This document shows positions 4,904-60,320 of a stretch of DNA of 64,000 nucleotides, one piece after another; the first letter of the stretch is position 1; every line of letters starts with the position of its first letter. The position numbers were made by a program, and so were the translations under genes. The DNA lies in IMG/VR virus record IMGVR_UViG_3300047160_002980, positions 5,918 to 69,917 of that record; one strand, given 5' to 3'. A model generated the notes under the pieces. That model did no database searches. It saw only the letters and a program-made list of their open reading frames with translations, and was not told the DNA's origin. The DNA is from a virus (taxonomy: Duplodnaviria > Caudoviricetes).

Positions 4904-5500
4904 CTATAAAACCGGTGAACGATTTTCCAAATGCGGTCGCCTGTCAACGGGAAGATTTCTACTCCACTGGCGGGCGACCGTCTCCAGCCCGGCGAGCAGC
5001 CGACCGAGAGCGCGGAACGCCGGGGTAGAGAGGGGCCGGCGGATCGCCAGGGAGATGGTCGCTTCCACCCATTCGCCGGCACAACTCCGCATCACAAGCT
5101 CGGTCGCGACCGGGTCGCCGAGGCGATTTTTGATCTGGGCGACGGTGCGGAGGGCGCGCAGGCTCGACGGCGATATCCCGACCGCCGGCCCCCGAATCGC
5201 GCCGCCGGCCATGATCGCCAGCCACAGGCCGTTGACCGAGCCGGGGCTGCCGTAGACCCCGGCGCGGATCGTCGCCAGCAATTCCCCCAGGCCGCGCCCG
5301 GCATGGTAGGCAGCGAGGTCGATCAGGCCGCGCCCGAGGAGGACCCCCAGCGGATCGACCGGCAGATCGGGGTCGCCGGTCAATAGTGCCCGATGCCGGC
5401 GCAGCGTGTAGCTGCCCGGATCGACGATCCCCGCGCGACCGTTGCGGGTGGTCTCCCTGCGGCGCGCGGCAAATTTCCGCTTGCGCCCCCGCTTTGCCAT
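4904..5500 (-). CDS. putative late transcription regulator (alphaproteobacterial phage Q-like/DUF6456-type)
   Basis: Basic N-terminus MAKRGRKRK followed by DPLGVLLGRGLID…YHAG; distal gene of the replication operon. Confidence 0.45.
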   Translation of the reverse strand: MAKRGRKRKFAARRRETTRNGRAGIVDPGSYTLRRHRALLTGDPDLPVDPLGVLLGRGLIDLAAYHAGRGLGELLATIRAGVYGSPGSVNGLWLAIMAGGAIRGPAVGISPSSLRALRTVAQIKNRLGDPVATELVMRSCAGEWVEATISLAIRRPLSTPAFRALGRLLAGLETVARQWSRNLPVDRRPHLENRSPVL

Positions 5501-5531
5501 CCGGGACTTATGCCCGATTTGACCGGAGAGT

Positions 5532-5786
5532 TCAGCTGTGCTTGGCCTTGATCAGGGTCGGCATCCCATTGCATCCCTGACAGACCGACTTGCCGCGCAT
5601 GGCTGGCGGTCCCAGTTCGACCCAGCACGGGTCGCTATGGTTGCACTTCCGGGGCGCGGCCAGTTGGCGCTGCCAGCGCCATTCGGCGAAGACCTCCAGC
5701 TGATCCTCGGTGTAGGTCCGGTCAGCGGCGCGCGGTTTGACCATGATCCTCTGTCGAGGCCAGCATGTGGTGAAACGTGGTCGCAA
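5532..5786 (-). CDS. hypothetical protein with C-terminal CxxC
   Basis: ORF in the operon direction; start uncertain. Confidence 0.45.
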   Translation of the reverse strand: MRPRFTTCWPRQRIMVKPRAADRTYTEDQLEVFAEWRWQRQLAAPRKCNHSDPCWVELGPPAMRGKSVCQGCNGMPTLIKAKHS

Positions 5787-5991
5787 TCTGCATCAGCGAC
5801 GTGTCGCGCAGGATCAGCCGCATGATCGACGGCGGGTCCACCCCGTAGCTGTTCGCCTCGCAGATCACCCGGCAGCAGACACAGGTCAGGCGTTGGGGAA
5901 AGAACCTCAGCGCCGGCAGGCGGTCCATGATCTCCTCAGCGACCAGGGCGGCGGCGTCGCAGGGACCTTTCGGGACAAAGTCGATACTCAT
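5722..5991 (-). CDS. hypothetical protein (89 aa)
   Basis: ATGA overlap with the upstream gene. Confidence 0.55.
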   Translation of the reverse strand: MSIDFVPKGPCDAAALVAEEIMDRLPALRFFPQRLTCVCCRVICEANSYGVDPPSIMRLILRDTSLMQIATTFHHMLASTEDHGQTARR

Positions 5992-10333: not shown

Positions 10334-12328
10334 TTAAACAGCATTGGCAATTTCTGTCGCCTTGCGCTCGTCAAGCACGACACCCTGGACCTCGTGGTTA
10401 TTGCGTTTTTTGCTCCGGTAAGGGGCGATGACCAGGACCCCGGATTTGACCCAATCACGGACCAGCCGTCTCGCCTCGCCCTTCTCCTTGTTCCCCGCCT
10501 TGCAGATCGGCCACCCCACCCAGTCGTTGGACCGGATGTCGATCAGCCACTTCTCGTCCGGCCCAGGGCCGGTACGGATCGCCGCAAAAATCTTTCCCCA
10601 TAACTCAGCCGTCATCTCGGCGTAGGGGTCCGGCGGGTACCACCGTCTGACCGCCTGGACATTGTCGCCGTGCGGATAGGTCTCGCTACTGTTGCCAATC
10701 GGGACGCCAATCAGTTCAAACCACGCCTCCGGCTCCTCTGGCGTGATGTTCACCTTGCCGTCGTCAAGCCGGACCAGGGTCTTCTGCTGTCGCTTCTCAA
10801 CCCCGAGATCGTCCGCCTCCTTGTCGGTCATCTTGGTCAGCGTCTTTAGCAGCCGCGACGCATTGACCAGGGCCGAAGCGCCGCGCACCCGGTCAGCATC
10901 CCCCGCCGAACCGGCCCCCTTGCGGTCGTGGCTGACATAATCGGCGGCGCAGCCGCAAGCATGGGCGACCCCGAGAAACTGCTGCGCGACCTGATCCATT
11001 TGCCCGTTGTCGTTCTCGTTCGCCGCGTGCGATTTGACAATCGGATCAATCGACACCAGACCGATCCCCAGCGCCCGGATACGCTCGGCCAGGGCCTCAG
11101 CCAAACCACCGGTTTCAACCTCGCCATATTTGACGACCTCCAGAAACCGCAGACCCGAGGGCGTCCAGGTGTGGAGCCAACCATTAAGCTCGCCCGGCGT
11201 GATCCGATGGGCGTCGCACGCCGCCTTGACCCGGCGCTTTAGCTCGTTCTCGTCGTCCTCCAGACACACCAGGAGGACCCTGGTTCGCTTCCAGCAATGC
11301 TCCTGGGTCAGCGGACGCCCCAGCGCCAGGGCAATCAGCTGGGTCAGCCGCAACGCGGTCTTGCCCGTCCCGCCCGCCCCGGTCAGCCCGCTCAGATAAC
11401 CGATGCAAAAATTGGTCCCCAATAACCAGCCGCGCGGCGGTATGGCGTCGAGATCATCCCAGGTCGATTTGATCTCCGGCTGCCCCGCGTCGCGGCCCCC
11501 GACCGGGTCCACGCCATCGACGATATCATCAAACTCCGACTGACCCATCCCCTGGTCCATCGCGTCGTAGATATCGCCTTTGTCGGGCAGCCCCGGTATC
11601 TCGACGATCTTGATCCACTTCGCCACACCGCCGAGCGCCGCCGCCACCTGCCGGGCGTGGGCCAGACCGGGATGGAGCGGGTCGCTCGCGTCGTTGTCCG
11701 GCAAAATCACGATTTCCTTGCCGGCAAACCATCTTGAGTAGGACGGATGCCACTTATTCGCCCCGCCCGGACTACAGGTCGCGCAGACCCCCCAATCGGC
11801 GACCATCCGGTTCGCCGCCTTCTCCCCCTCGACGATATAAACCCGAGTCGCGGCAATGACCTCCGGGAGCCGGTACGGCACCCGCTCGACCCCCTTCAAA
11901 TTCCATATCCACCCGCCGTTGCCATCCGGCCGGCGCGGGCGGAATGTCTTTGGTTCAAACCGCACGACCTGAAAAATCAACACCCCTTTGTCGGAATTAT
12001 AGGGATAAATCGCGGTAATTTTTGCTCTGGTCGTCCCCGAATTATTGCCCTTGTCCTCGACCAGCTTGTGGGTTTTTAGCCAGTCCCACGCCGCTTGCCC
12101 CTTGAGTTCCGCGTAAATCTCCAGGAAGTCCAGGACCCCGCCCTTCAGGTCTAACTCAAAGGAAATCCACGTCCCTTGGTTCGGTCCCGCCACATTGACC
12201 TTGAGCGACCCGTTGCTGCCGTAGCGCCACTCCTCCTTGTTGGACAGCTTCCAGTTTGGCTCGCCCAGCACGAGGCGGGCGATCTCGGCCATCTTGTCGG
12301 CGGGTTCAAAGCGGGAATTGTCGGCCAT
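10334..12328 (-). CDS. DNA primase-helicase (TOPRIM + AAA_25/RepA-like helicase)
   Basis: VYIVEGEKAA and ILPDND TOPRIM motifs; GAGGTGKT Walker A; VSIDP Walker B. Confidence 0.92.
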   Translation of the reverse strand: MADNSRFEPADKMAEIARLVLGEPNWKLSNKEEWRYGSNGSLKVNVAGPNQGTWISFELDLKGGVLDFLEIYAELKGQAAWDWLKTHKLVEDKGNNSGTTRAKITAIYPYNSDKGVLIFQVVRFEPKTFRPRRPDGNGGWIWNLKGVERVPYRLPEVIAATRVYIVEGEKAANRMVADWGVCATCSPGGANKWHPSYSRWFAGKEIVILPDNDASDPLHPGLAHARQVAAALGGVAKWIKIVEIPGLPDKGDIYDAMDQGMGQSEFDDIVDGVDPVGGRDAGQPEIKSTWDDLDAIPPRGWLLGTNFCIGYLSGLTGAGGTGKTALRLTQLIALALGRPLTQEHCWKRTRVLLVCLEDDENELKRRVKAACDAHRITPGELNGWLHTWTPSGLRFLEVVKYGEVETGGLAEALAERIRALGIGLVSIDPIVKSHAANENDNGQMDQVAQQFLGVAHACGCAADYVSHDRKGAGSAGDADRVRGASALVNASRLLKTLTKMTDKEADDLGVEKRQQKTLVRLDDGKVNITPEEPEAWFELIGVPIGNSSETYPHGDNVQAVRRWYPPDPYAEMTAELWGKIFAAIRTGPGPDEKWLIDIRSNDWVGWPICKAGNKEKGEARRLVRDWVKSGVLVIAPYRSKKRNNHEVQGVVLDERKATEIANAV

Positions 12329-15087: not shown

Positions 15088-15897
15088 ATGAATGCCATGT
15101 CCCCCGGTCTCGGTCACAACCAGCCACCCGACGATCCCGATGACCCCGAATTCTTGACCCGCCTGCAAGCTCGCCTCGATCCCGAGGACAAACAGATTTT
15201 CGACCGGCTCGCCGAGTTGGAGGTCGGCCAGGGCCAGATACCCGACCCGCTGCCCAGCGAGGCGGTCGCCGCGCGTGCGGTCTCCTGGGTCGCGCAGTGC
15301 CGGCTCGCCGAAGCCGAGATAAAAAAGGCGCACAAGAAGAACAAGTCGCCGATCCTGGCGCTGGGCCGCTGGATCGACGCCCGCTATCTGCGCCGGGTCG
15401 AAGCCTTTAACCGCGACGTCGTCAATCCCATCGAGGCGCGGGTCAGGCGCTTCCGGCAGGCCAAGGCCGACGCCCAGCGGATCGCCGAGGAGGAGGCTCG
15501 CCGCAAGGCAGCCCAACAGGCCGAGGAAGCCGCCGCTGCCGCCGCCAATCGTCGGCGAGAGGCACAGCTGGCCGAGGACGCGGGGAACCGCCGTGGGGCC
15601 GTCGCGCTGACCCGGCAGGCCGAGGCCGCGCAGGCGGAAGCCGATAAACAGGACGCCCTGGCGCACATGCCGGACCAGCCGGTGCGGATTGAAGGCGAGC
15701 ATGGCGCAACCGCCTATGCCGTCAAACGCTGGACTTTTTATGTCGCCGACCCCGAGACCCTGCCGGCGCGGTTCTGGATGCCGGACGAGACCGCCATCAA
15801 GGACGAGATGAACCGGCAGATCGCCGAAGGCAAGGACCCCACCATCCCCGGCGTGAGCTTTACGCTGGAGGAAGACACCCGGATCAGGAGATGCTAA
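15088..15897 (+). CDS. Gp157/Gam-like coiled-coil protein of the recombination module
   Basis: GHNQPP N-terminus, long Ala/Glu coiled coil, WTF…IPGV C-terminus; directly upstream of RecT. Confidence 0.65.
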   Translation: MNAMSPGLGHNQPPDDPDDPEFLTRLQARLDPEDKQIFDRLAELEVGQGQIPDPLPSEAVAARAVSWVAQCRLAEAEIKKAHKKNKSPILALGRWIDARYLRRVEAFNRDVVNPIEARVRRFRQAKADAQRIAEEEARRKAAQQAEEAAAAAANRRREAQLAEDAGNRRGAVALTRQAEAAQAEADKQDALAHMPDQPVRIEGEHGATAYAVKRWTFYVADPETLPARFWMPDETAIKDEMNRQIAEGKDPTIPGVSFTLEEDTRIRRC

Positions 15898-17330
15898 TGG
15901 CCGAGACGACAAACCAGGACCTGATGAAGCTGCCGCTCAACCAAGCGGTCCAGCTATACGCGCCGCAAATGGCGGTCGCCTTCCCCTCGCGGATCGCCTG
16001 CAACCAGGGCCGGCTGGTCCGCGTCATCCAATCGACGCTGACCTTCTTCCCCGACCTTCAGCACAAATGCGACCGGGCGTCCCTGTTCCGCGCCCTGGCC
16101 CGCTGCGCCCAGGACGGGTTGTACCCGGACGGGCGCGAGGCGGCGCTGGTACCCTACGGCAAGGAGGTCCAGTACATCCCGATGTACAAGGGGATGCTGA
16201 AGCTGATCTCCAACTATGTCCTGTCGGTGACCACCGAGGTCGTCTGCGAACACGATTATTTTGAGCGCGAGATGGGCGACGACGCCCGGATCAGCCACCG
16301 CGCGCCACCACTCGATCAGGACCGGGGCGAGATGATCGGGGTCTATTGCCTGATCCGGCTCAAGACCGGTGACTTAATCCGCGAGGTAATGCCCAAGTCG
16401 GAGGTCGAGCGCATCCGCACCACCTATTCGAAGAATACGCGCGACGATGCACCGTGGAAGCGCGAGTACAACGAGATGGCGCGCAAGACCGTGTTCCGCC
16501 GCGCGGTAAAATGGGTACCCATCGAGGACGAGGAAATTGCCCGCGTGTTCGACCGGCCCGACGACGACGAGATACCGCTGGCCGAGGTCGCCGCCCCGCC
16601 CCGGATCAGCGACGAGGACGTGACCGAGAACGGCCCCAAGCGCCAGCGTCAGCGCAAGGCCGCGCCGGTCTCCGAGGTCATCCCCCCGGAGCGGGAGGGT
16701 CGCCTGCCGCCCGAGATGGAGCCGGGGGATTTCGACGACGAGATGCCGCCGCTCCCCGGCGAGGATGCCGAGCCTGCCGGGAGGGACGCGGATGCTGGTA
16801 GCGCGCCCCAGGTCACGCCGGCCTACAGCTTTGGCGACAGCGTCGGCGAGGTCTTTGAGTTCGACAGCGTTGCCGAGGCGGTTGCCGCCTACACCGAATT
16901 CCTGGAGAAAGCGGCAAAGGACCCGAAGGCTATCGCGACGCTGTGGGACAACGGCCACAACCTCCGCGCCGCCCTGGTCAATGACGGCAAGCACGAGATC
17001 GTCAAGGCCCTGGCGGAACTGCACGACCGGCTTACCATGCAACAGCGGGCCGACGCGCCAAAGAACCTCCGCGAGGTCGCCGAAGCGCCAAAGACGAACG
17101 GCCAGGACTTCATCATTCCGTTCGATGGAGAGCGGACCCAGGCTTGGTACCGCGACGCCATCGCCAAGCTGAAGGCGATGCAGGCGGCGAGCGCGCCCCC
17201 AGCCGACTTTGCCGCCTTCAAGCAACAGAACGCCAAGGCCCTAGCCGCGCTAGAGAAGGGCGAGAACGCCTTCCCGTCACTGTTCCGGCCCCTAAATCAG
17301 ATACTGACATACGAGACGAGGCCCCGATGA
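15891..17330 (+). CDS. recT: RecT-family single-strand annealing recombinase with a long acidic C-terminal extension
   Basis: CAQDGLYPDGREAALVPY, YKGMLKL, PW…EMARKTVFRRAVKWVP. Confidence 0.9.
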   Translation: MLMAETTNQDLMKLPLNQAVQLYAPQMAVAFPSRIACNQGRLVRVIQSTLTFFPDLQHKCDRASLFRALARCAQDGLYPDGREAALVPYGKEVQYIPMYKGMLKLISNYVLSVTTEVVCEHDYFEREMGDDARISHRAPPLDQDRGEMIGVYCLIRLKTGDLIREVMPKSEVERIRTTYSKNTRDDAPWKREYNEMARKTVFRRAVKWVPIEDEEIARVFDRPDDDEIPLAEVAAPPRISDEDVTENGPKRQRQRKAAPVSEVIPPEREGRLPPEMEPGDFDDEMPPLPGEDAEPAGRDADAGSAPQVTPAYSFGDSVGEVFEFDSVAEAVAAYTEFLEKAAKDPKAIATLWDNGHNLRAALVNDGKHEIVKALAELHDRLTMQQRADAPKNLREVAEAPKTNGQDFIIPFDGERTQAWYRDAIAKLKAMQAASAPPADFAAFKQQNAKALAALEKGENAFPSLFRPLNQILTYETRPR

Positions 17331-52344: not shown

Positions 52345-52659
52345 ATGGCGGGCGTGAAGGGCCGCAGCGGCGGTCGTCGCCCCGGTGCCGGCAGGCCGAA
52401 GGGTAGCAAAAGCCAGACAACCCTGGATCGCGAGGCGCGAGACCAGAAACTCGACCGCGTGCTGAATATCCTGATCGCCGAGCAGCAGGCCCGGCGCAAC
52501 CAGTACGAGTCACTGCCATCGGTCCTGCGCCGCCTCGTCGAGATCGAAAAGCTTCTCCAGATGCGCGAGCGGGTCCGGGTCGAACGCCACACCCGGAATC
52601 AGCCGATGGGCAAGTCCGCCGCCGCCGAGCGGCTATTCAAGCCGGCAGAGGCGGATTAG
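52345..52659 (+). CDS. AT-hook-type protein, antisense to the late operon
   Basis: GGRRPGAGRPKGSK; fills the terL-portal gap exactly. Confidence 0.6.
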   Translation: MAGVKGRSGGRRPGAGRPKGSKSQTTLDREARDQKLDRVLNILIAEQQARRNQYESLPSVLRRLVEIEKLLQMRERVRVERHTRNQPMGKSAAAERLFKPAEAD

Positions 52660-54598: not shown

Positions 54599-55198
54599 CT
54601 ACTCCTTCGCGACGAATAGGTGATTGCCGCACTTGTTGCAGACGACCTCCAGGTAGTCCGGCTGGGCCGGCGGCTCCGGTTGGGCCGCGCCCTCATCGGT
54701 CCCGGCCCCGGTATGGTCCTGGCCGTTCTCCTGCGGCGGCGCGGCGACTACCTGGGCCGGCTCAGTCGGCGTGTTTATGTCAAAATTGACACTTCCCGCT
54801 ACGCCGATGTCAAAATTGAGCGATCCCAGGTCGAACTCAAACGGCAGATTGAGCGCCCCCAGTTCGCTCTTGAGGAGGTCGGTGTCCCATCCCGAGAACT
54901 CCTGGACCCGGTTGTCGGCCAGCCGGTCGAGCCGGATCGTCTCCTCGTCGGCGTCGCTGTAGACGCACGGGAGCGCCGTCATCGCGAGGCGGATACCGGC
55001 TTTCCACCGGGTGTGTCCCTTGACGATCACGTTATCGCGGTCGAGGACAAGCGGCACGTTGAACCCGACTTTCGGGATCAGTTCGACCAGCTTGTCCACG
55101 GTCGCGTCATTGCGGCGCGGATTACGGTGGTACGGCTTGATCTGGGCAATCGGCACCATGACGATCCGGTCGGTCACGGCAATGGCTGTGGCTGCCAT
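54599..55198 (-). CDS. ParB/Sulfiredoxin N-terminal domain protein
   Basis: IKPYHRNPR…GFNVPLVLD…IVKGHTRWKA…RLADNR; C-terminal CNKC. Confidence 0.9.
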   Translation of the reverse strand: MAATAIAVTDRIVMVPIAQIKPYHRNPRRNDATVDKLVELIPKVGFNVPLVLDRDNVIVKGHTRWKAGIRLAMTALPCVYSDADEETIRLDRLADNRVQEFSGWDTDLLKSELGALNLPFEFDLGSLNFDIGVAGSVNFDINTPTEPAQVVAAPPQENGQDHTGAGTDEGAAQPEPPAQPDYLEVVCNKCGNHLFVAKE

Positions 55199-55206
55199 CG
55201 GGTCTC

Positions 55207-55758
55207 CTACGCTACGAAGGTGGGCGACTGGCGCGAACGGGGACGCCGCCGGTCGATGGCCGACAAGCCGACCCTATGCTGCACCAGCGAAGGGACGTGC
55301 TGCCAGTAGCTTTCGCCGCGCTCCTTGAGCCAGTCCGCCACCATGCTGTCGGTTCCGCCCGGCCCGATCCCGACGCGGTTCCGCCAGCGCGGGCAAAACT
55401 CGTAGATCATCCGGCAGTAGGTCGGCGGGAAATAGACACAGAGGTTGTAGAGAAAGCCGCCGCCGGACATGAAGCGCGACCCTACCGTCAGGTCCTCCTT
55501 GCGCCGGCTGAAGAAGTTGATCACCCGGTTGGGCCGGCGCGCGATCTCGGCTTCGACCTTTGCGACAAGCCCGCGACATGGCTCCGCGTCGTCCTCCATC
55601 AGCACAGCGGCGTCGTCGCCGACGGTCAGCAGGGTTAGCAGGAAGGTGTCGAGCGCGACGCGGGTGCGGTCCCGGACGATCTCCAGATGCGGGATTTCGG
55701 CGACCAGGGCGGGCAGCCATTGTTCCCGCTGCGGGACGGATCGGACGAGAAATCTCAT
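55207..55758 (-). CDS. GT-A fold glycosyltransferase-like protein
   Basis: VLMEDDA acidic motif; HVPSLVQH C-terminal motif. Confidence 0.7.
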   Translation of the reverse strand: MRFLVRSVPQREQWLPALVAEIPHLEIVRDRTRVALDTFLLTLLTVGDDAAVLMEDDAEPCRGLVAKVEAEIARRPNRVINFFSRRKEDLTVGSRFMSGGGFLYNLCVYFPPTYCRMIYEFCPRWRNRVGIGPGGTDSMVADWLKERGESYWQHVPSLVQHRVGLSAIDRRRPRSRQSPTFVA

Positions 55759-56204
55759 CCGTTGCCGCTGATGTTGAGACACGGGCGCGTCTTCGGGACC
55801 GGCCTGCCGCGCGCGTCGGTATCGACGCTGTGGCCCCCGACGAGCTTCAGGGTCTCGGTACGGTCGATCAGCATCCCGTCGATCTCGTAAAGGTCCAGGG
55901 TCCGCGCGAGGAACCGGATCACCGTTAGCGGATTGAAGTCGGCGCAGCTGTAGAGGTCGAACTGGTAGAGCGTCATCGCCGGGCCGGGCCAGGAGTGAAG
56001 GACACAGTGGCTTTCTTCGATCACCGCCGCGACGGTCACGCCCTCGTTGCCGGGGATCGCGCAATCGTAGACGACCGGATTACCGGGCACGTCGGCGATG
56101 TGCATCGCGATTTCGCGGATGATTTCGCGGACCAGATACTCGGCCTGCAACGGATTAACGTCATTCCGGCCCTGCGCCCGGACGATAAGATGCTGGTGCT
56201 TCAC
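55755..56204 (-). CDS. speD: S-adenosylmethionine decarboxylase proenzyme
   Basis: GVTVAAVIEESHCVLHSWP with the E/S-H pyruvoyl self-cleavage site; FDLYSC. Confidence 0.85.
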   Translation of the reverse strand: MKHQHLIVRAQGRNDVNPLQAEYLVREIIREIAMHIADVPGNPVVYDCAIPGNEGVTVAAVIEESHCVLHSWPGPAMTLYQFDLYSCADFNPLTVIRFLARTLDLYEIDGMLIDRTETLKLVGGHSVDTDARGRPVPKTRPCLNISGNG

Positions 56205-56761
56205 CGCCCCTCCTCGTATTTCAGCCGCTCCTCGATTTGTACCGGGGTCTCGGTCGCTCGACTGTAGCTGCCGTTGAGGAAGAATTTCGCATAGCCGGTG
56301 ACGTGCTTGAGCCGGCGAAGTTCCTCCGGCTCAAGACCGATCTCGTGACAGATACGCGCGTCGGTCCAGCCATTGTTCAGCATCTCAATGACCAGGGACG
56401 ACATGCCGGCGACCGTGTGCTTCCCCCTGGCGCGGTTATGCCGGATCGTCGAAGCCATGCGCTGATTGATCGGCTTGTCGATCACGACAATCGGCAGGAG
56501 ACCGTGGTTCTTCTCGTAGATATCGCGCCGGGTCTTGGTGATCAGGTAGCGGTGGAACCCGTCCACGACCTCCCAACGATCCGGGCCAGCCTGATAGGTC
56601 ACGACCGGCTGGGTGTACCCGTCCTCGCGGATCGACAGGTAGAGGAGGTCCATCTCGGTCTGGGCGACCGTGTTCGGATTATAGTCGTTGGCGAAGACCT
56701 TCTCGACCGGAACCCACTCTACCCGGCAGATCGGATTATGGCTGAGGTCCGGCAGCGACAT
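56201..56761 (-). CDS. ibrB: IbrB-like ParB/Srx protein
   Basis: ANDYNPN.VA..EM.LL..SI.EDGYTQP…VVDGFHRY…MASTIRHNRARGKH. Confidence 0.85.
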   Translation of the reverse strand: MSLPDLSHNPICRVEWVPVEKVFANDYNPNTVAQTEMDLLYLSIREDGYTQPVVTYQAGPDRWEVVDGFHRYLITKTRRDIYEKNHGLLPIVVIDKPINQRMASTIRHNRARGKHTVAGMSSLVIEMLNNGWTDARICHEIGLEPEELRRLKHVTGYAKFFLNGSYSRATETPVQIEERLKYEEGR

Positions 56762-57350
56762 GCCACTCCCCTCCCTTGCGCCGGATGCGGTCCACCATGA
56801 CGGCGAGCCGCGCCGCGTTGAGTTCCGTGCCGACAAACCGCCGGCCCGCCGCAAAGGCGCTGCGCCCGACCAGTCCCAGCCCCATGCAAGGGTCGGCGAT
56901 CATATCGAAGGTCTCGGTCTTGCACACCGTCGCGATGATCTCGGCCTCATCGAGATTGCTGTAGTCGAGCGGCGGCATATCCTCGCCCGCGCGCAGCACG
57001 GTACACGGGTGCCGGCGATAATAGGTCGAGGGGTAAACCATCAGGTGCGCGTCCGGCATGAGCCGGCGCAGACGAATCGCGAACGGCTGATATTTGGTCC
57101 CGCACTCGACAAAGCACGTCCGGGGCGCGATCTCGGCCAGCCGGGCAAACAATGTGTCGAGAAAGCGGTTAAAACCGAGCTTATTGTGGGCGAGACCCGC
57201 CTTGGTGCGAAAGCCGTTCTCCAGGGCGGCGTTGTAGGGCGGATCGACAAACACGCAATCTGCCTCGCGCATAAAGTCGGGTAGCCCGTGGTAGAGGTCG
57301 TGGACCATGACCCGGCCCAGGCCGCAATCCCACAATTCGCCGATTTTCAT
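56736..57350 (-). CDS. short beta-class amino-methyltransferase-like protein (DPPY)
   Basis: FVDPPYN before DPCMGLG and GTELN; no evident target-recognition domain. Confidence 0.75.
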   Translation of the reverse strand: MKIGELWDCGLGRVMVHDLYHGLPDFMREADCVFVDPPYNAALENGFRTKAGLAHNKLGFNRFLDTLFARLAEIAPRTCFVECGTKYQPFAIRLRRLMPDAHLMVYPSTYYRRHPCTVLRAGEDMPPLDYSNLDEAEIIATVCKTETFDMIADPCMGLGLVGRSAFAAGRRFVGTELNAARLAVMVDRIRRKGGEWHVAAGPQP

Positions 57351-58048
57351 CGGGGCGAGCGGTAATTCTGATGCGGGTATTTGTGGCTCCCCCAGTAGAC
57401 CTTGTAGCGGATATTGCGGTGGACCGTGACGAGCCGACTGTCCCAGTCCTCGCCGCTGACATCGCGCCGGTAGGTCGTCGCGACCTTGTCCCAGCCATTG
57501 TGGTCCTTCGGGTTCAGCAGCGAATCCATGGCGCAGAGATGCTGACAGATCGACGGGACCGTGGTGATACAGCGGACGCGATCCGCCAGGGCGAACTCAC
57601 CAATGGCGCGGTCGTTGTGCGGATAGCCCTCGCCCAGATATTTGGCGATCCAGTCGTGACAGGGCCGGATCATGCCGGCGTGCATCATCATCGCGACGCC
57701 GTGAATGTTCGCCCCAGGTAGGAGGACATAGGGCGACCGGACCTTCCGGTCGGAAAACCTCATCCCGGTGTGAAAGAAGGTCAGGATCGCGTCGGGATGC
57801 GCGACCGCCGCCCGCTCGACGATAGAGACGAAGTCATCGCAGATGTCGGCGTCGTCCTGCAGCACCAGCCGGTGCATGGCGTCGGGCGGCATCGGCTGAA
57901 GCCATGTCAGGCGCGACGTGTACTGGGCATCGCCGCCGGCTGGCCGGTCGTCCCAGGTCACGATGCTTTCATCCTTGCCGAGCCGCCGCAGGAGTGAGGC
58001 GACCAAATCGCGGCGCTTCGGATGCGCCATGATCCGAATGTCGATCAC
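57347..58048 (-). CDS. GT-A fold glycosyltransferase-like protein (paralog of 55207)
   Basis: IMAHPKR; LVLQDDA; VPSICQH. Confidence 0.7.
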   Translation of the reverse strand: MIDIRIMAHPKRRDLVASLLRRLGKDESIVTWDDRPAGGDAQYTSRLTWLQPMPPDAMHRLVLQDDADICDDFVSIVERAAVAHPDAILTFFHTGMRFSDRKVRSPYVLLPGANIHGVAMMMHAGMIRPCHDWIAKYLGEGYPHNDRAIGEFALADRVRCITTVPSICQHLCAMDSLLNPKDHNGWDKVATTYRRDVSGEDWDSRLVTVHRNIRYKVYWGSHKYPHQNYRSPR

Positions 58049-59220
58049 TGGCTCAGTTGCCGTATCCGTTCCTGGGTCTGGTTTCGGTAGTAATCGTTCT
58101 TCTTGCGGTCGGCCAGCTTAAACACGCCCCTGGCGTTATCGGTCAGCTTGCCCTCGATATCGTTGATCAGCAGTTCCTTGACTTGCATCTTGTGCCAGCG
58201 TTCCAGGTCGCCGGTGCTCAGGCTCTTGCGCTTCCAGCGTTTGCGGAACAGGGCGTGGTACTTCGGCTCGATCAGATGGATCAGCAGATAGTCCCGGTAC
58301 TCCTGCCAGTCCTTGAACGGGGCCGGTAGCTGGCGCGGCATGATATCCTCGCCGAAATGGGCAAAGGCGCTGGTGCCGTGGATACGCCGCAAGTAGCGCG
58401 CGTAGGTCTCTGGCTCCATCTCCTGCAAGCGCCGGATAAAGTGCCACGAGGTCTCGTGGATCAGGGCCGACACCCGCATCATCCGGGGCGTCACGCCATA
58501 CTGGAACATCTTGTCGTAGATGCGGTTATAGGCGAGGTCGTTCTGCGCGATGCACACCCAGACGTCTTTATCGAGCCAGTCGTAGATCGGCCAGAAAACC
58601 CTGGTGTTGCGGACAGGGGCGCGGCTCCAGGTGATCCCCTTGAAGTTCGATTTCGCAGCCCCGGCATAGTCGCCGCTCCGCGACCAGCCAATCGAGATAC
58701 GGCGCTGGACGCTCTCGGCCATCCGCATCCCGACCAGGACCCCGACATGCTGCTTGTCGCGGGTGTCGCAGCCGGTCGCCAGGACCTTGATGACGTCTTC
58801 GAACAAGTCGCAGCCGAACCGGTTCTCCTTGATCGAGATCGGGTCCTGGTCGCGTATCCAGATATCGCGGTCCTTCGGGTTCCAGCAGTAGAGGAAGTCA
58901 TCGGTCGCCGAGAGGCTATTGGTGAGCCGCCACGGGAACTGGAACCAGAACGGGCTGACGTCCGGGCTGTACATCACGCCGCGCATGAAGTCGGCGGTCG
59001 CCTGCCATTCGGCTTCCTGGTCTAGCCACTGGACCTTGAGCGGTAGCCGGCCTAGCTCGGTCGCGACCCGGCGGGCGAGGTGGAGGAGGACCGTCGAGTC
59101 CTTCCCACCCGACATGCTGACAATGACGTCGTCGCAGTTGTCGAAGACAAAGCGGACGCGGTCTAGCGCCGCCTCATAGACCGTCAAGCCGAGGCTGGTC
59201 GAGACCCGTCGGATCGTCAT
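58045..59220 (-). CDS. ibrA: IbrA-like PAPS-reductase-fold (PP-loop) protein
   Basis: VSMSGGKDS PP-loop; LDQEAEW; GMRMAES..R; PIYDW…VW; MRVSALIHE. Confidence 0.88.
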   Translation of the reverse strand: MTIRRVSTSLGLTVYEAALDRVRFVFDNCDDVIVSMSGGKDSTVLLHLARRVATELGRLPLKVQWLDQEAEWQATADFMRGVMYSPDVSPFWFQFPWRLTNSLSATDDFLYCWNPKDRDIWIRDQDPISIKENRFGCDLFEDVIKVLATGCDTRDKQHVGVLVGMRMAESVQRRISIGWSRSGDYAGAAKSNFKGITWSRAPVRNTRVFWPIYDWLDKDVWVCIAQNDLAYNRIYDKMFQYGVTPRMMRVSALIHETSWHFIRRLQEMEPETYARYLRRIHGTSAFAHFGEDIMPRQLPAPFKDWQEYRDYLLIHLIEPKYHALFRKRWKRKSLSTGDLERWHKMQVKELLINDIEGKLTDNARGVFKLADRKKNDYYRNQTQERIRQLSQ

Positions 59221-59590
59221 CGGTCACCGTCGCCCGGTTGATAATGTTCCCCATGCGCCAGTATTTGAACCCGTCGCCGGGGATCAGATAGCGGTAATAA
59301 TACTTGCCGAATTTTATACTGATGCCGTGCGCCTTGATCGCCACAGCGAGGATCGCGTGTTCCTCCGGGGCCTTGTGTTCAAGGCTCCACCAGTGCGGGG
59401 CGCGTTCGGCGTAGGTCTTCGCCCAGGTCCAGGACATGCTGGCGACCAGGACGCGGAGTTCGGTGGCTCGCTCAAGGGACAGGGGTTCAGGCTCTCGCCT
59501 GCGGGATCGTGGCAAGGGTCGCTCCTGTGGAATGTCGGCCTTTCGGCCTTCCACCATTATAGACGCGACCGTAACGAGGTCGAGCGACAT
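59174..59590 (-). CDS. conserved hypothetical protein (W.WAKTYAERAPH…G.KYW.MG..INR)
   Basis: Motif recalled from genes near phage ParB/IbrA clusters; in operon. Confidence 0.65.
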   Translation of the reverse strand: MSLDLVTVASIMVEGRKADIPQERPLPRSRRREPEPLSLERATELRVLVASMSWTWAKTYAERAPHWWSLEHKAPEEHAILAVAIKAHGISIKFGKYYYRYLIPGDGFKYWRMGNIINRATVTDDDPTGLDQPRLDGL

Positions 59591-59607
59591 TGCAAAATTC
59601 CCCTGAA

Positions 59608-59811
59608 TTATAGGGACCGCTTCAGGTAGACGTAAGCTCCGTCGCAGGCGAACGCCTCCCAGCCTTCAGCGCCAGCCTCGTTCAGGGCGTCTTCGATCTG
59701 GTGATGCGGGAGCATTCCGCCAAAGGACATCGTCTTGTACTCCCAGCCGCTGGTCTGGCCGGGCGGGCGATCCGCTGGCCCTTCCGGCGGCGGACGTCGG
59801 GTGTCGCTCAT
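59608..59811 (-). CDS. DUF4177 domain protein
   Basis: WEYKT…LNEAGAEGWE…YLKR. Confidence 0.75.
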   Translation of the reverse strand: MSDTRRPPPEGPADRPPGQTSGWEYKTMSFGGMLPHHQIEDALNEAGAEGWEAFACDGAYVYLKRSL

Positions 59812-59820
59812 CGCGGGTCC

Positions 59821-60096
59821 TCACTTTGTGACCGGTAGCCCACCCGAGTTGGTCGTGTGGCGGCGGTGATGCACCACCGGGGCGGACGTGGTCCTGTAGT
59901 GGGTGTGGGCGTCGTAGTGCCGGTGGTGCCGGTGATAGCGGTGCGTCGGCGGCGGCTCGACGTATTCCGGCGGGGCCGGCAGCGGCGGCGGATAGGACGC
60001 GACCACAGGTGGCGGCGGGACCGGGACCGGGACCGGGGCCGGCTGGGGCGCGCACGCCACCAGGGCAACCAAGGCGGGAACGATCAGGTGCCGCAT
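59821..60096 (-). CDS. Pro/His-rich lipoprotein
   Basis: AGGAG RBS; signal peptide with LVA-C lipobox (Cys15). Confidence 0.7.
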   Translation of the reverse strand: MRHLIVPALVALVACAPQPAPVPVPVPPPPVVASYPPPLPAPPEYVEPPPTHRYHRHHRHYDAHTHYRTTSAPVVHHRRHTTNSGGLPVTK

Positions 60097-60130
60097 TCAT
60101 CTCTCCTGCAAAGCGCCCCTAGATAGCACA

Positions 60131-60240
60131 ATGGCGGCGCAAGGGACCTCGCGCCGCCATCGGCTCCGGTTGTGCCGGACTGACCCCCACCCCTTCCACA
60201 GGACGAAAGGAGGCGGGGCGTGTTGACGCCCCGCCCTTTC
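60131..60240 (-). terminator. two GC-rich hairpins in the late-operon leader (candidate attenuator/terminator)
   Basis: ATGGCGGCGC-10-GCGCCGCCAT (60131-60160) and GGCGGGGCGT-4-ACGCCCCGCC (60212-60235) with a TCCTTTC tail on the minus strand. Confidence 0.6.
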
Positions 60241-60268
60241 ATTTCCAAAGGCAGAGGTCAGAGGACCA

Positions 60269-60298
60269 ATCATATGGGAAAGCCGGCTCGATTGTCAA
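60269..60298 (-). promoter_or_regulatory. leftward (late) sigma70 promoter TTGACA-18-TATGAT
   Basis: Read from the reverse complement of 60269-60298. Confidence 0.7.
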
Positions 60299-60320
60299 GC
60301 CGCCATTTACCCGTAACCCA

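Follow-up and report, generated by a model that had tools for sequence, protein, structure and literature searches.

We analyzed a window of 64,000 nucleotides, bases 5918 to 69917 of a 69.9-kb IMG/VR record from a soil phage. Ten genes lie in a row on its minus strand, from position 59590 to position 52656, with eight cassette genes followed by terS and terL. The eight genes encode, in order, a small PHxY protein, an IbrA-like PP-loop protein, a glycosyltransferase-like protein of the GT-A type (GT1), a methyltransferase-like protein with a DPPY motif, an IbrB-like ParB protein, a pyruvoyl decarboxylase, a second GT-A-like protein (GT2), and a second ParB protein (ParB2). The initial annotation described a tightly coupled cluster with this order ahead of the terminase genes, and coordinates and profile searches confirmed every item. 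The set is a variant of a widespread, modular IbrA/IbrB-ParB phage cassette with varying accessory slots. We read it, with a probability of roughly 0.5, as a modular DNA-marking cassette at the head of the packaging operon. In this reading, the glycosyltransferase and decarboxylase genes vary among cassettes and serve in tailoring or as helpers. Gene association makes DNA the likeliest target of the cassette.

Conservation of the IbrA/IbrB cassette

IbrA homologues were found in 223 cultured phage records, and clustering at 50% identity divides the family (E ≤ 1e-30) into 740 groups. The carriers are phages of Actinomycetota, Bacteroidota, Bacillota, and others, and the genes lie beside packaging genes. 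In the phages Laroye, Hendrix, and FCL-2 and in loci L002, L016, L018, L022, and L023, the cassette is next to terS/terL or between terL and the portal gene. The conserved core consists of the small PHxY protein, IbrA, IbrB, and a second ParB-like protein. The clustering of these genes is far beyond chance and recurs in many unrelated contigs. The initial annotation had named a lack of co-occurrence elsewhere as evidence against its reading. In our survey, IbrA, IbrB, ParB, methyltransferase, and GT-A genes recurred together in other loci.

The cassettes fall into two clades. The clade of the window has the PHxY protein and ParB2 and usually abuts terL. In the other clade, an SNF2-family helicase lies upstream of the IbrA-IbrB-methyltransferase genes (21 of 41 IbrA-bearing loci), and most of these loci also encode a ~291-amino-acid (aa) protein. 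Pfam confirmed the helicase in L007, L056, L058, and the cultured phage FCL-2 (gp07; L051). The upstream block of this second clade contains a ~389-aa protein (16 loci), the helicase of ~475 aa (21 loci), and the ~291-aa protein (20 loci). A ~180-aa protein (phrog_12389) follows the cassette in eight loci. None of the SNF2, 291-aa, and 389-aa partners was found in the window.

The closest relative of the window cassette is L047, with identities of 74% for IbrA, 85% for GT1, and 82% for terL. It contains the decarboxylase and both glycosyltransferases, and a Methyltransf_24 enzyme precedes ParB2. A public 325-aa gene call in L047 (4609-5586) fuses this enzyme of ~234 aa with the start of ParB2, which matches 5315-5899. 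The call is likely a gene-calling artefact in high-GC DNA. IbrA of L002 is 52% identical to that of the window, and L002 contains no glycosyltransferase, methyltransferase, or decarboxylase. The cultured Microbacterium phage Hendrix shows nearly the complete layout of the window, in the order glycosyltransferase, glycosyltransferase, methyltransferase, acetyltransferase, IbrA, IbrB, ParB, ParB, helix-turn-helix (HTH)/terS, and terL. Its IbrA and its GT2-like protein are 39% and 38% identical to those of the window, respectively. Publications on the mechanism of phage IbrAB, DUF3440, and YbdN/YbdM yielded annotations only, and no paper testing function was found. The combination in the window is one variant rather than a unique system, as L047 and L002 differ from it in their accessory genes.

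Among 17 aligned members of the IbrA family, the PP-loop is strictly conserved along with many further residues, and no cysteine is invariant. The remark in the initial annotation on a missing C-terminal CxxC therefore stands, and DndC- or CysH-type sulfur chemistry is excluded. An AlphaFold2 model of the window protein (predicted local distance difference test [pLDDT] score, 79) has a PAPS-reductase-like N-terminal domain and a helical DUF3440-like C-terminal domain. Its best matches were the PAPS domain of FAD synthase, APS/PAPS reductases, and CysD, with TilS, NcsA, and TtuA ranking lower. A structure search with the helical C-terminal domain gave no match. Dnd/Ssp systems share with the window a PP-loop ATP pyrophosphatase of the PAPS-reductase family with DNA-associated partners, and there was a weak DndC hidden Markov model (HMM) match (6e-6). 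Unlike those systems, the IbrA family of the window has no conserved Fe-S or persulfide cysteines, and no cysteine desulfurase or DndD/E was seen in the operon. DndC-like phosphorothioation was rejected on the missing cysteines and on a TIGR03183 score of 25 bits against a cut-off of 290.

The window has both marks of an IbrA/IbrB cassette, an IbrA-like protein and an IbrB-type partner in one operon. That partner is kept in 37 of 41 labelled IbrA-bearing loci. In the representative protein P0170, ParB_N and IbrA are fused, and ParB2 is of the type that is fused to DNA methyltransferases in phrog_498. The IbrAB island of Escherichia coli ECOR-9 and phage IbrA/"PAPS reductase" genes (PHROG 2302 and 2159) likewise combine PAPS_reduct and DUF3440 with an adjacent IbrB-type ParB protein. 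In contrast to ECOR-9, the pair in the window is split by GT1 and the DPPY gene, and the window adds a second ParB protein, the PHxY protein, two GT-A enzymes, and the pyruvoyl decarboxylase.

A conserved domain with the pattern W.WAKTY..PHWY...YW.M..IINR makes up the C-terminal ~90 aa of the small PHxY protein. This domain lies directly upstream of IbrA, or overlaps it, in other cassettes of the same clade (L002, L005/L021, L006, L022, and L047). A protein atlas search with the small protein returned sub-threshold matches only. Hendrix gp156 (L003, 6991-7986), annotated as a methyltransferase, has a weak match to the domain near its N terminus (E = 3e-4), which hints that the small protein may be a methyltransferase adaptor.

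Two side observations concern IbrA itself. The 653-aa homologue P0128 carries an Intein_splicing domain between its PAPS_reduct and DUF3440 parts; inteins usually occur in essential DNA-metabolism proteins. In three loci, a protein with an Rv2179c-like 3'-5' exoribonuclease domain (PF16473, 7e-53) is inserted between IbrA and IbrB (Table 1).

Methyltransferase, glycosyltransferase, and decarboxylase genes

The DPPY family consists of proteins of 200 to 240 aa in which DPP[YWC], motif I (DPCMGxG), and an RRFVGTELN block are invariant. The window protein has DPPY (motif IV) at residues 36 to 39 and DPCMGLG (motif I) at residues 153 to 159. Across 34 family sequences, D153, G157, G159, and DPP[YWC] do not vary. 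The family profile matched structures of the DpnA-type adenine methylases (PDB 5hek and 5hfj), CcrM (6pbd), and MboIIA (1g60). The protein therefore has the catalytic motifs of a beta-class N6/N4 amino methyltransferase. At its length, a target recognition domain (TRD) cannot fit between the motif blocks, and the match to PF01555 (N6_N4_Mtase) is below the gathering cut-off of 26.7 bits. It shares the IV-then-I motif order, the small size, and the lack of a separate TRD with the DpnA-type M1.HpyAVI (5hek/5hfj) and with the phrog_498 fusions, and it shares a ParB domain partner with the latter. Similarity to DpnA-type N6-adenine methyltransferases is confined to the two motif regions (E ~2e-7).

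Unlike ordinary methyltransferases, the DPPY family is tied to IbrA and IbrB. Viral contigs were fetched with the DPPY profile, and 16 loci in them held true family members. The DPPY homologue adjoins IbrA and/or IbrB in 13 of them, and one of the three exceptions ends at a contig edge. The same neighbors lie beside the gene in 22 of 26 loci from bacterial genomes of many phyla, and a contig end truncates two of the other four. A colinear IbrA-IbrB-methyltransferase triad is present in 20 of these 26 loci. Isolates in the bacterial set include Peptostreptococcus sp. D1, Pelotomaculum propionicicum MGP, Clostridium luticellarii DSM 29923, and Anaerobacterium chartisolvens DSM 27016. The arrangement is repeated in metagenome contigs L005 to L007. 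Given this co-occurrence, the DPPY enzyme is a dedicated accessory of IbrA/IbrB. The reverse dependence does not hold, as a tblastn search of cultured phages found no DPPY relatives. Remote relatives of the DPPY N terminus lie directly behind a ParB2-like domain in ParB-methyltransferase pairs or fusions (L026 to L046; phrog_498).

Laroye gp8, Hendrix gp156, and FCL-2 gp07 were considered as DPPY-family members and rejected by HMM. The first (class I) and the second are annotated as methyltransferases of other kinds, and FCL-2 gp07 is SNF2 related. Nonhomologous methyltransferases occupy the same neighborhood in L047 (Methyltransf_24), Laroye, and Hendrix, and methylation looks like a step of the cassette pathway. 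The window protein starts ~19 aa later than the family consensus and is without the W.YDGS..RFP.KPG start. Its gene is wedged between GT1 and IbrB, with overlaps of 4 and 26 nucleotides (nt). The late start and this position suggest a recent insertion or rearrangement.

The AlphaFold2 model of GT1, from a 24-sequence alignment, has a GT-A fold (pLDDT 87). Invariant residues are R12, WDDR at 32 to 35, QDD at 64 to 66, and QH at 169 and 170. The nearest solved structures were POMGnT1 and GnT-I (top), mimivirus R655, KfiA, and ColGalT1, and Foldseek gave a probability of 1.00 against GT13, GT25-type, and other GT-A structures. The nearest viral models include a Hendrix glycosyltransferase and gp87 of mycobacteriophage Ardmore. 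GT2 is a distant paralogue of GT1 with a similar pattern, in which R11, EDD at 55 to 57, and LVQH at 158 to 161 are invariant. GT1 has the fold, the DxD-type acidic motif, and the C-terminal His of GT-A enzymes; in the sequence of GT2, the acidic motif and the His are present.

At least eight independent IbrA cassettes contain GT-A genes of the GT1/GT2 family. These are L003 (Hendrix gp154 and gp155), L007, L013, L018, L019 (two genes), L023, L047 (GT1 and GT2), and the window. Most IbrA/IbrB cassettes are without any glycosyltransferase, and these genes are facultative. A tblastn search of cultured phages with GT1 gave a single weak match.

Glycosylation of DNA by phage GT-A enzymes has experimental precedent; those enzymes act on 5-hydroxymethylcytosine (5hmC) made by a C5 methyltransferase and TET (bioRxiv 10.1101/2023.12.21.572611). 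The window proteins share the GT-A fold with them and with the trypanosome base-J glucosyltransferase. They also share with the phage enzymes that they are phage encoded, sometimes two in series, near ParB, methyltransferase, and terminase genes. The R...DDD...EDY/F motif set of the phage DNA glycosyltransferases is not evident in GT1, which has R...WDDR...QDD...QH. The 5hmC and base-J systems need a C5 methyltransferase and TET or ThyS-type enzymes to make the acceptor. The record of the window is 72% complete (CheckV) with ~64% G+C, and statements on genes absent from the record refer to this portion. It gave no match to ThyS-like hydroxymethylases (PF00303) or C5 methyltransferases (PF00145), and no tRNA-guanine transglycosylase (TGT)/DpdA was found in it. 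The record also gave no match to Tet_JBP (PF12851), a scan that was uninformative because its control matched nothing. The known hypermodification routes through 5hmC, 5-hydroxymethyluracil, and 7-deazaguanine were rejected on the absence of ThyS, C5 methyltransferase, and TGT from the record, with the Tet_JBP control silent.

In the decarboxylase, the Ser, His, and Cys that serve processing in class 1b S-adenosylmethionine decarboxylase (AdoMetDC) are retained (EESHCVLHSWP...YSC), as these residues are defined in PMC10407285. Its EES-H-x4-H...YSC pattern aligns with the motif of Aquifex AdoMetDC. It is very divergent, with a best PDB match of E = 0.005 over 38 residues and a TIGR03330 score of 38 bits against a cut-off of 75.65. 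No Spermine_synth or other aminopropyltransferase gene was found in the record. Compared with class 1b AdoMetDC/SpeD and with SpeDA/SpeDC (PMC10407285), it shares Pfam AdoMet_dc and the three residues and differs in its divergence and in the lack of a spermidine synthase partner. Diverse phage SpeD homologues are without AdoMetDC activity and decarboxylate arginine or ornithine instead (Li et al., PMC10407285). "SAM decarboxylase" is a family label here, not a function, because the protein is divergent, its phage homologues often use arginine or ornithine, and no spermidine-synthase-type gene is present. The proposal that it makes decarboxylated S-adenosylmethionine (dcSAM) for aminopropyl transfer came from the family name. 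Such a transfer, including one by the DPPY enzyme, found no support, as the record has no aminopropyltransferase. For the DPPY enzyme there is also the conservation of its family in dozens of cassettes that have no decarboxylase, and L047 has the decarboxylase without a DPPY gene. In T4-like and other phages, relatives of the decarboxylase (34 to 42% identity) stand alone, next to genes for gyrase or capsid proteins. Five of their contexts were checked, and IbrA was present in none.

Operon layout and neighboring features

The junctions of the ten genes, in gene order, are -47, -4, -4, -26, -4, -4, +8, +3, and -4 nt (Table 1). GT1 sits between IbrA and the DPPY gene, and the decarboxylase and GT2 sit between IbrB and ParB2.

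Table 1. Features of the cassette operon and related insertions (window positions unless a locus is named)
Feature	Position	Strand	Evidence
Small PHxY protein, 138 aa	59590-59174	-	No Pfam, PHROG, or NCBIfam match
IbrA-like PP-loop ATP pyrophosphatase, SGGKDS	59220-58045	-	PF01507 3e-14; phrog_2302 4e-80; DUF3440 weak (0.01)
GT1, GT-A-fold glycosyltransferase-like	58048-57347	-	phrog_854 "glucosyltransferase" 5e-13; AlphaFold2 model
TRD-less beta-class amino-methyltransferase-like protein (DPPY), 204 aa	57350-56736	-	Motifs IV and I; PF01555 22.7 bits
IbrB-like ParB/Srx-fold protein, DGFHRY motif	56761-56201	-	phrog_2159 3e-68
Divergent SpeD/AdoMet_dc-family pyruvoyl decarboxylase proenzyme	56204-55755	-	PF02675 5e-12
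GT2, second GT-A-like protein	55758-55207	-	phrog_854 2e-8; BLAST to GT1 2e-5
ParB2, canonical ParB N-terminal domain, GHTRWKA box	55198-54599	-	phrog_620 7e-37
terS, small terminase subunit (HTH)	54595-54173	-	Profile matches
terL, large terminase subunit	54176-52656	-	Profile matches
Candidate sigma-70-like promoter, TTGACA-18-TATGAT	60298-60269	-	11/12 consensus matches; pattern match only
PF16473 insertion	L011:8304-8843		
PF16473 insertion	L067:4257-4796		
PF16473 insertion	L068:2971-3510		

No strong terminator was found inside the operon; it has 8 weak sites, against 5.2 +/- 2.7 in shuffled sequence, which is no excess. The promoter-like site is separated from the first cassette gene by ~700 nt (59591-60300) with small or doubtful open reading frames only, and this region may be a regulated leader. 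It contains a 10-bp GC hairpin at 60212-60235. The phage also encodes a primase/helicase (phrog_239 and phrog_25693) and a RecT-like annealing protein (phrog_148), with genes at 10334-12328 (-) and 15891-17330 (+). No integrase was found in the record.

Proposed function and alternative readings

SNF2 helicases, ParB domains, the ParB-IbrA fusion, the DNA-methylase homologue, and linkage to the terminase genes together point, by association, to DNA as the likely substrate. In the mechanism that we propose, IbrB, which is ParB-like, and ParB2 would load on phage DNA. IbrA would spend ATP on activating a group in the DNA or close to it, by adenylation or otherwise, and the DPPY enzyme, dependent on IbrA/IbrB, would methylate an amino nitrogen at that site. 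The two GT-A enzymes and the pyruvoyl decarboxylase would be lineage-specific tailoring or helper genes in variable slots. The DNA would receive its mark shortly before packaging or in the course of it, and escape from host nucleases is the probable purpose. What the data show directly are the identities and folds of the proteins, their catalytic motifs, the coupling of the genes, and their conserved co-occurrence; we infer DNA as the substrate, the sequence of the steps, and any part that the glycosyltransferases and the decarboxylase play in the same pathway. The initial annotation had proposed a multistep DNA hypermodification pathway. Its placement in an operon with packaging genes and its choice of DNA as the likeliest target stand, and little specific support was found for a single pathway of eight steps. 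A single pathway that needs no hydroxymethyl-pyrimidine precursor seems improbable to us. There, IbrA would adenylate a base carbonyl or a backbone group of ParB-loaded DNA by TilS-like chemistry. The decarboxylase would supply an amine for installation (agmatine, putrescine, or a dcSAM-derived group), and the resulting side chain would be methylated by the DPPY enzyme and glycosylated by the two GT-A enzymes.

Several observations weigh against DNA marking by the cassette. Among IbrA cassettes, the decarboxylase was found only in the lineage of the window (the window and L047). L047 has no DPPY gene, so this gene is dispensable in that lineage. The closest solved folds of IbrA work on small nucleotides, not on nucleic acids. 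The record is without a ThyS-like enzyme or C5 methyltransferase that could provide a hydroxyl group for attachment of a sugar, and it has no TGT. Relatives of GT1 with ~40% identity lie between tail-fibre and holin/amidase genes in siphoviruses, with no IbrA nearby. The literature gives no direct chemical evidence for the product of the cassette, and an experimental study of E. coli IbrAB reportedly found that they activate the expression of prophage genes.

Some of these points fit an operon of mixed function. In it, only the IbrA/IbrB/ParB/methyltransferase core would act on DNA, the glycosyltransferases would glycosylate virion proteins or the host envelope, and the decarboxylase would be an ordinary metabolic gene in a permissive late-operon slot. 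It could make agmatine, putrescine, or a dcSAM-derived polyamine, and such a product might, for instance, act as a counter-ion to the packaged DNA. As GT-A genes are also present next to tail and lysis genes where there is no IbrA cassette, their acceptor may be something other than DNA, and the nearest solved folds of GT1 (POMGnT1, GnT-I, ColGalT1, and KfiA) are protein or glycan glycosyltransferases. The stand-alone decarboxylase relatives and the documented arginine or ornithine decarboxylase activity of phage SpeD homologues (PMC10407285) agree with the metabolic role. So do the different accessory content of close relatives and the failure to find a hydroxylated-base pathway in the record (with its TET/JBP control silent) with a mixed content. 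We nevertheless consider this reading rather unlikely, as 4-nt start/stop overlaps interleave the glycosyltransferase and decarboxylase genes with the core genes, and GT-A genes are present in at least eight independent IbrA cassettes, more often than a random moron would be.

Two further readings dispense with covalent marking of DNA. IbrA/IbrB and ParB2 could form a ParB-type clamp driven by nucleoside triphosphate (NTP), or an anti-silencer, that activates late transcription or marks the packaging start for the terminase. ParB-family proteins are NTP-dependent DNA clamps, the cassette has a constant position at the head of the late/packaging operon beside terS, and the E. coli IbrAB subsystem is named "coactivators of prophage gene expression"; all three speak for such a role. 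It would leave unexplained an obligate DNA-methylase-like partner with intact catalytic motifs, the strict conservation of the PP-loop and other IbrA residues, and the repeated recruitment of methyltransferases, glycosyltransferases, and an acetyltransferase, and we find it hard to credit. Alternatively, IbrA as a nucleotidyltransferase and the Srx-like IbrB could activate a sugar or another small molecule, with the GT-A, methyl, and acetyl enzymes decorating a virion or cell-surface acceptor. The closest folds of IbrA, the FMN adenylyltransferase of FAD synthase and the ATP sulfurylase CysD, are nucleotidyl transferases with small substrates, and SEA-PHAGES annotators labelled IbrA "adenylyltransferase." The Hendrix set, with two glycosyltransferases, a methyltransferase, and an acetyltransferase, resembles glycan tailoring. 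Most IbrA/IbrB cassettes, however, have no glycosyltransferase. The obligate methyltransferase partner is homologous to DNA methylases, and SNF2 helicases and ParB domains are found alongside IbrA/IbrB. This last reading appears very improbable.

The window adds an unusually gene-rich variant, which encodes two GT-A enzymes, a methylase without a TRD, and a pyruvoyl decarboxylase. It also adds comparative constraints, namely, the obligate IbrA-IbrB-methylase triad, the link to SNF2 helicases, and the ParB-IbrA fusion. Cultured carriers (Microbacterium phage Hendrix, Arthrobacter phage Laroye, and Flavobacterium phage FCL-2) allow a direct test. If the cassette does modify DNA, it would give phages a new chemical route around restriction or CRISPR, and new DNA-modifying enzymes could be drawn from it.

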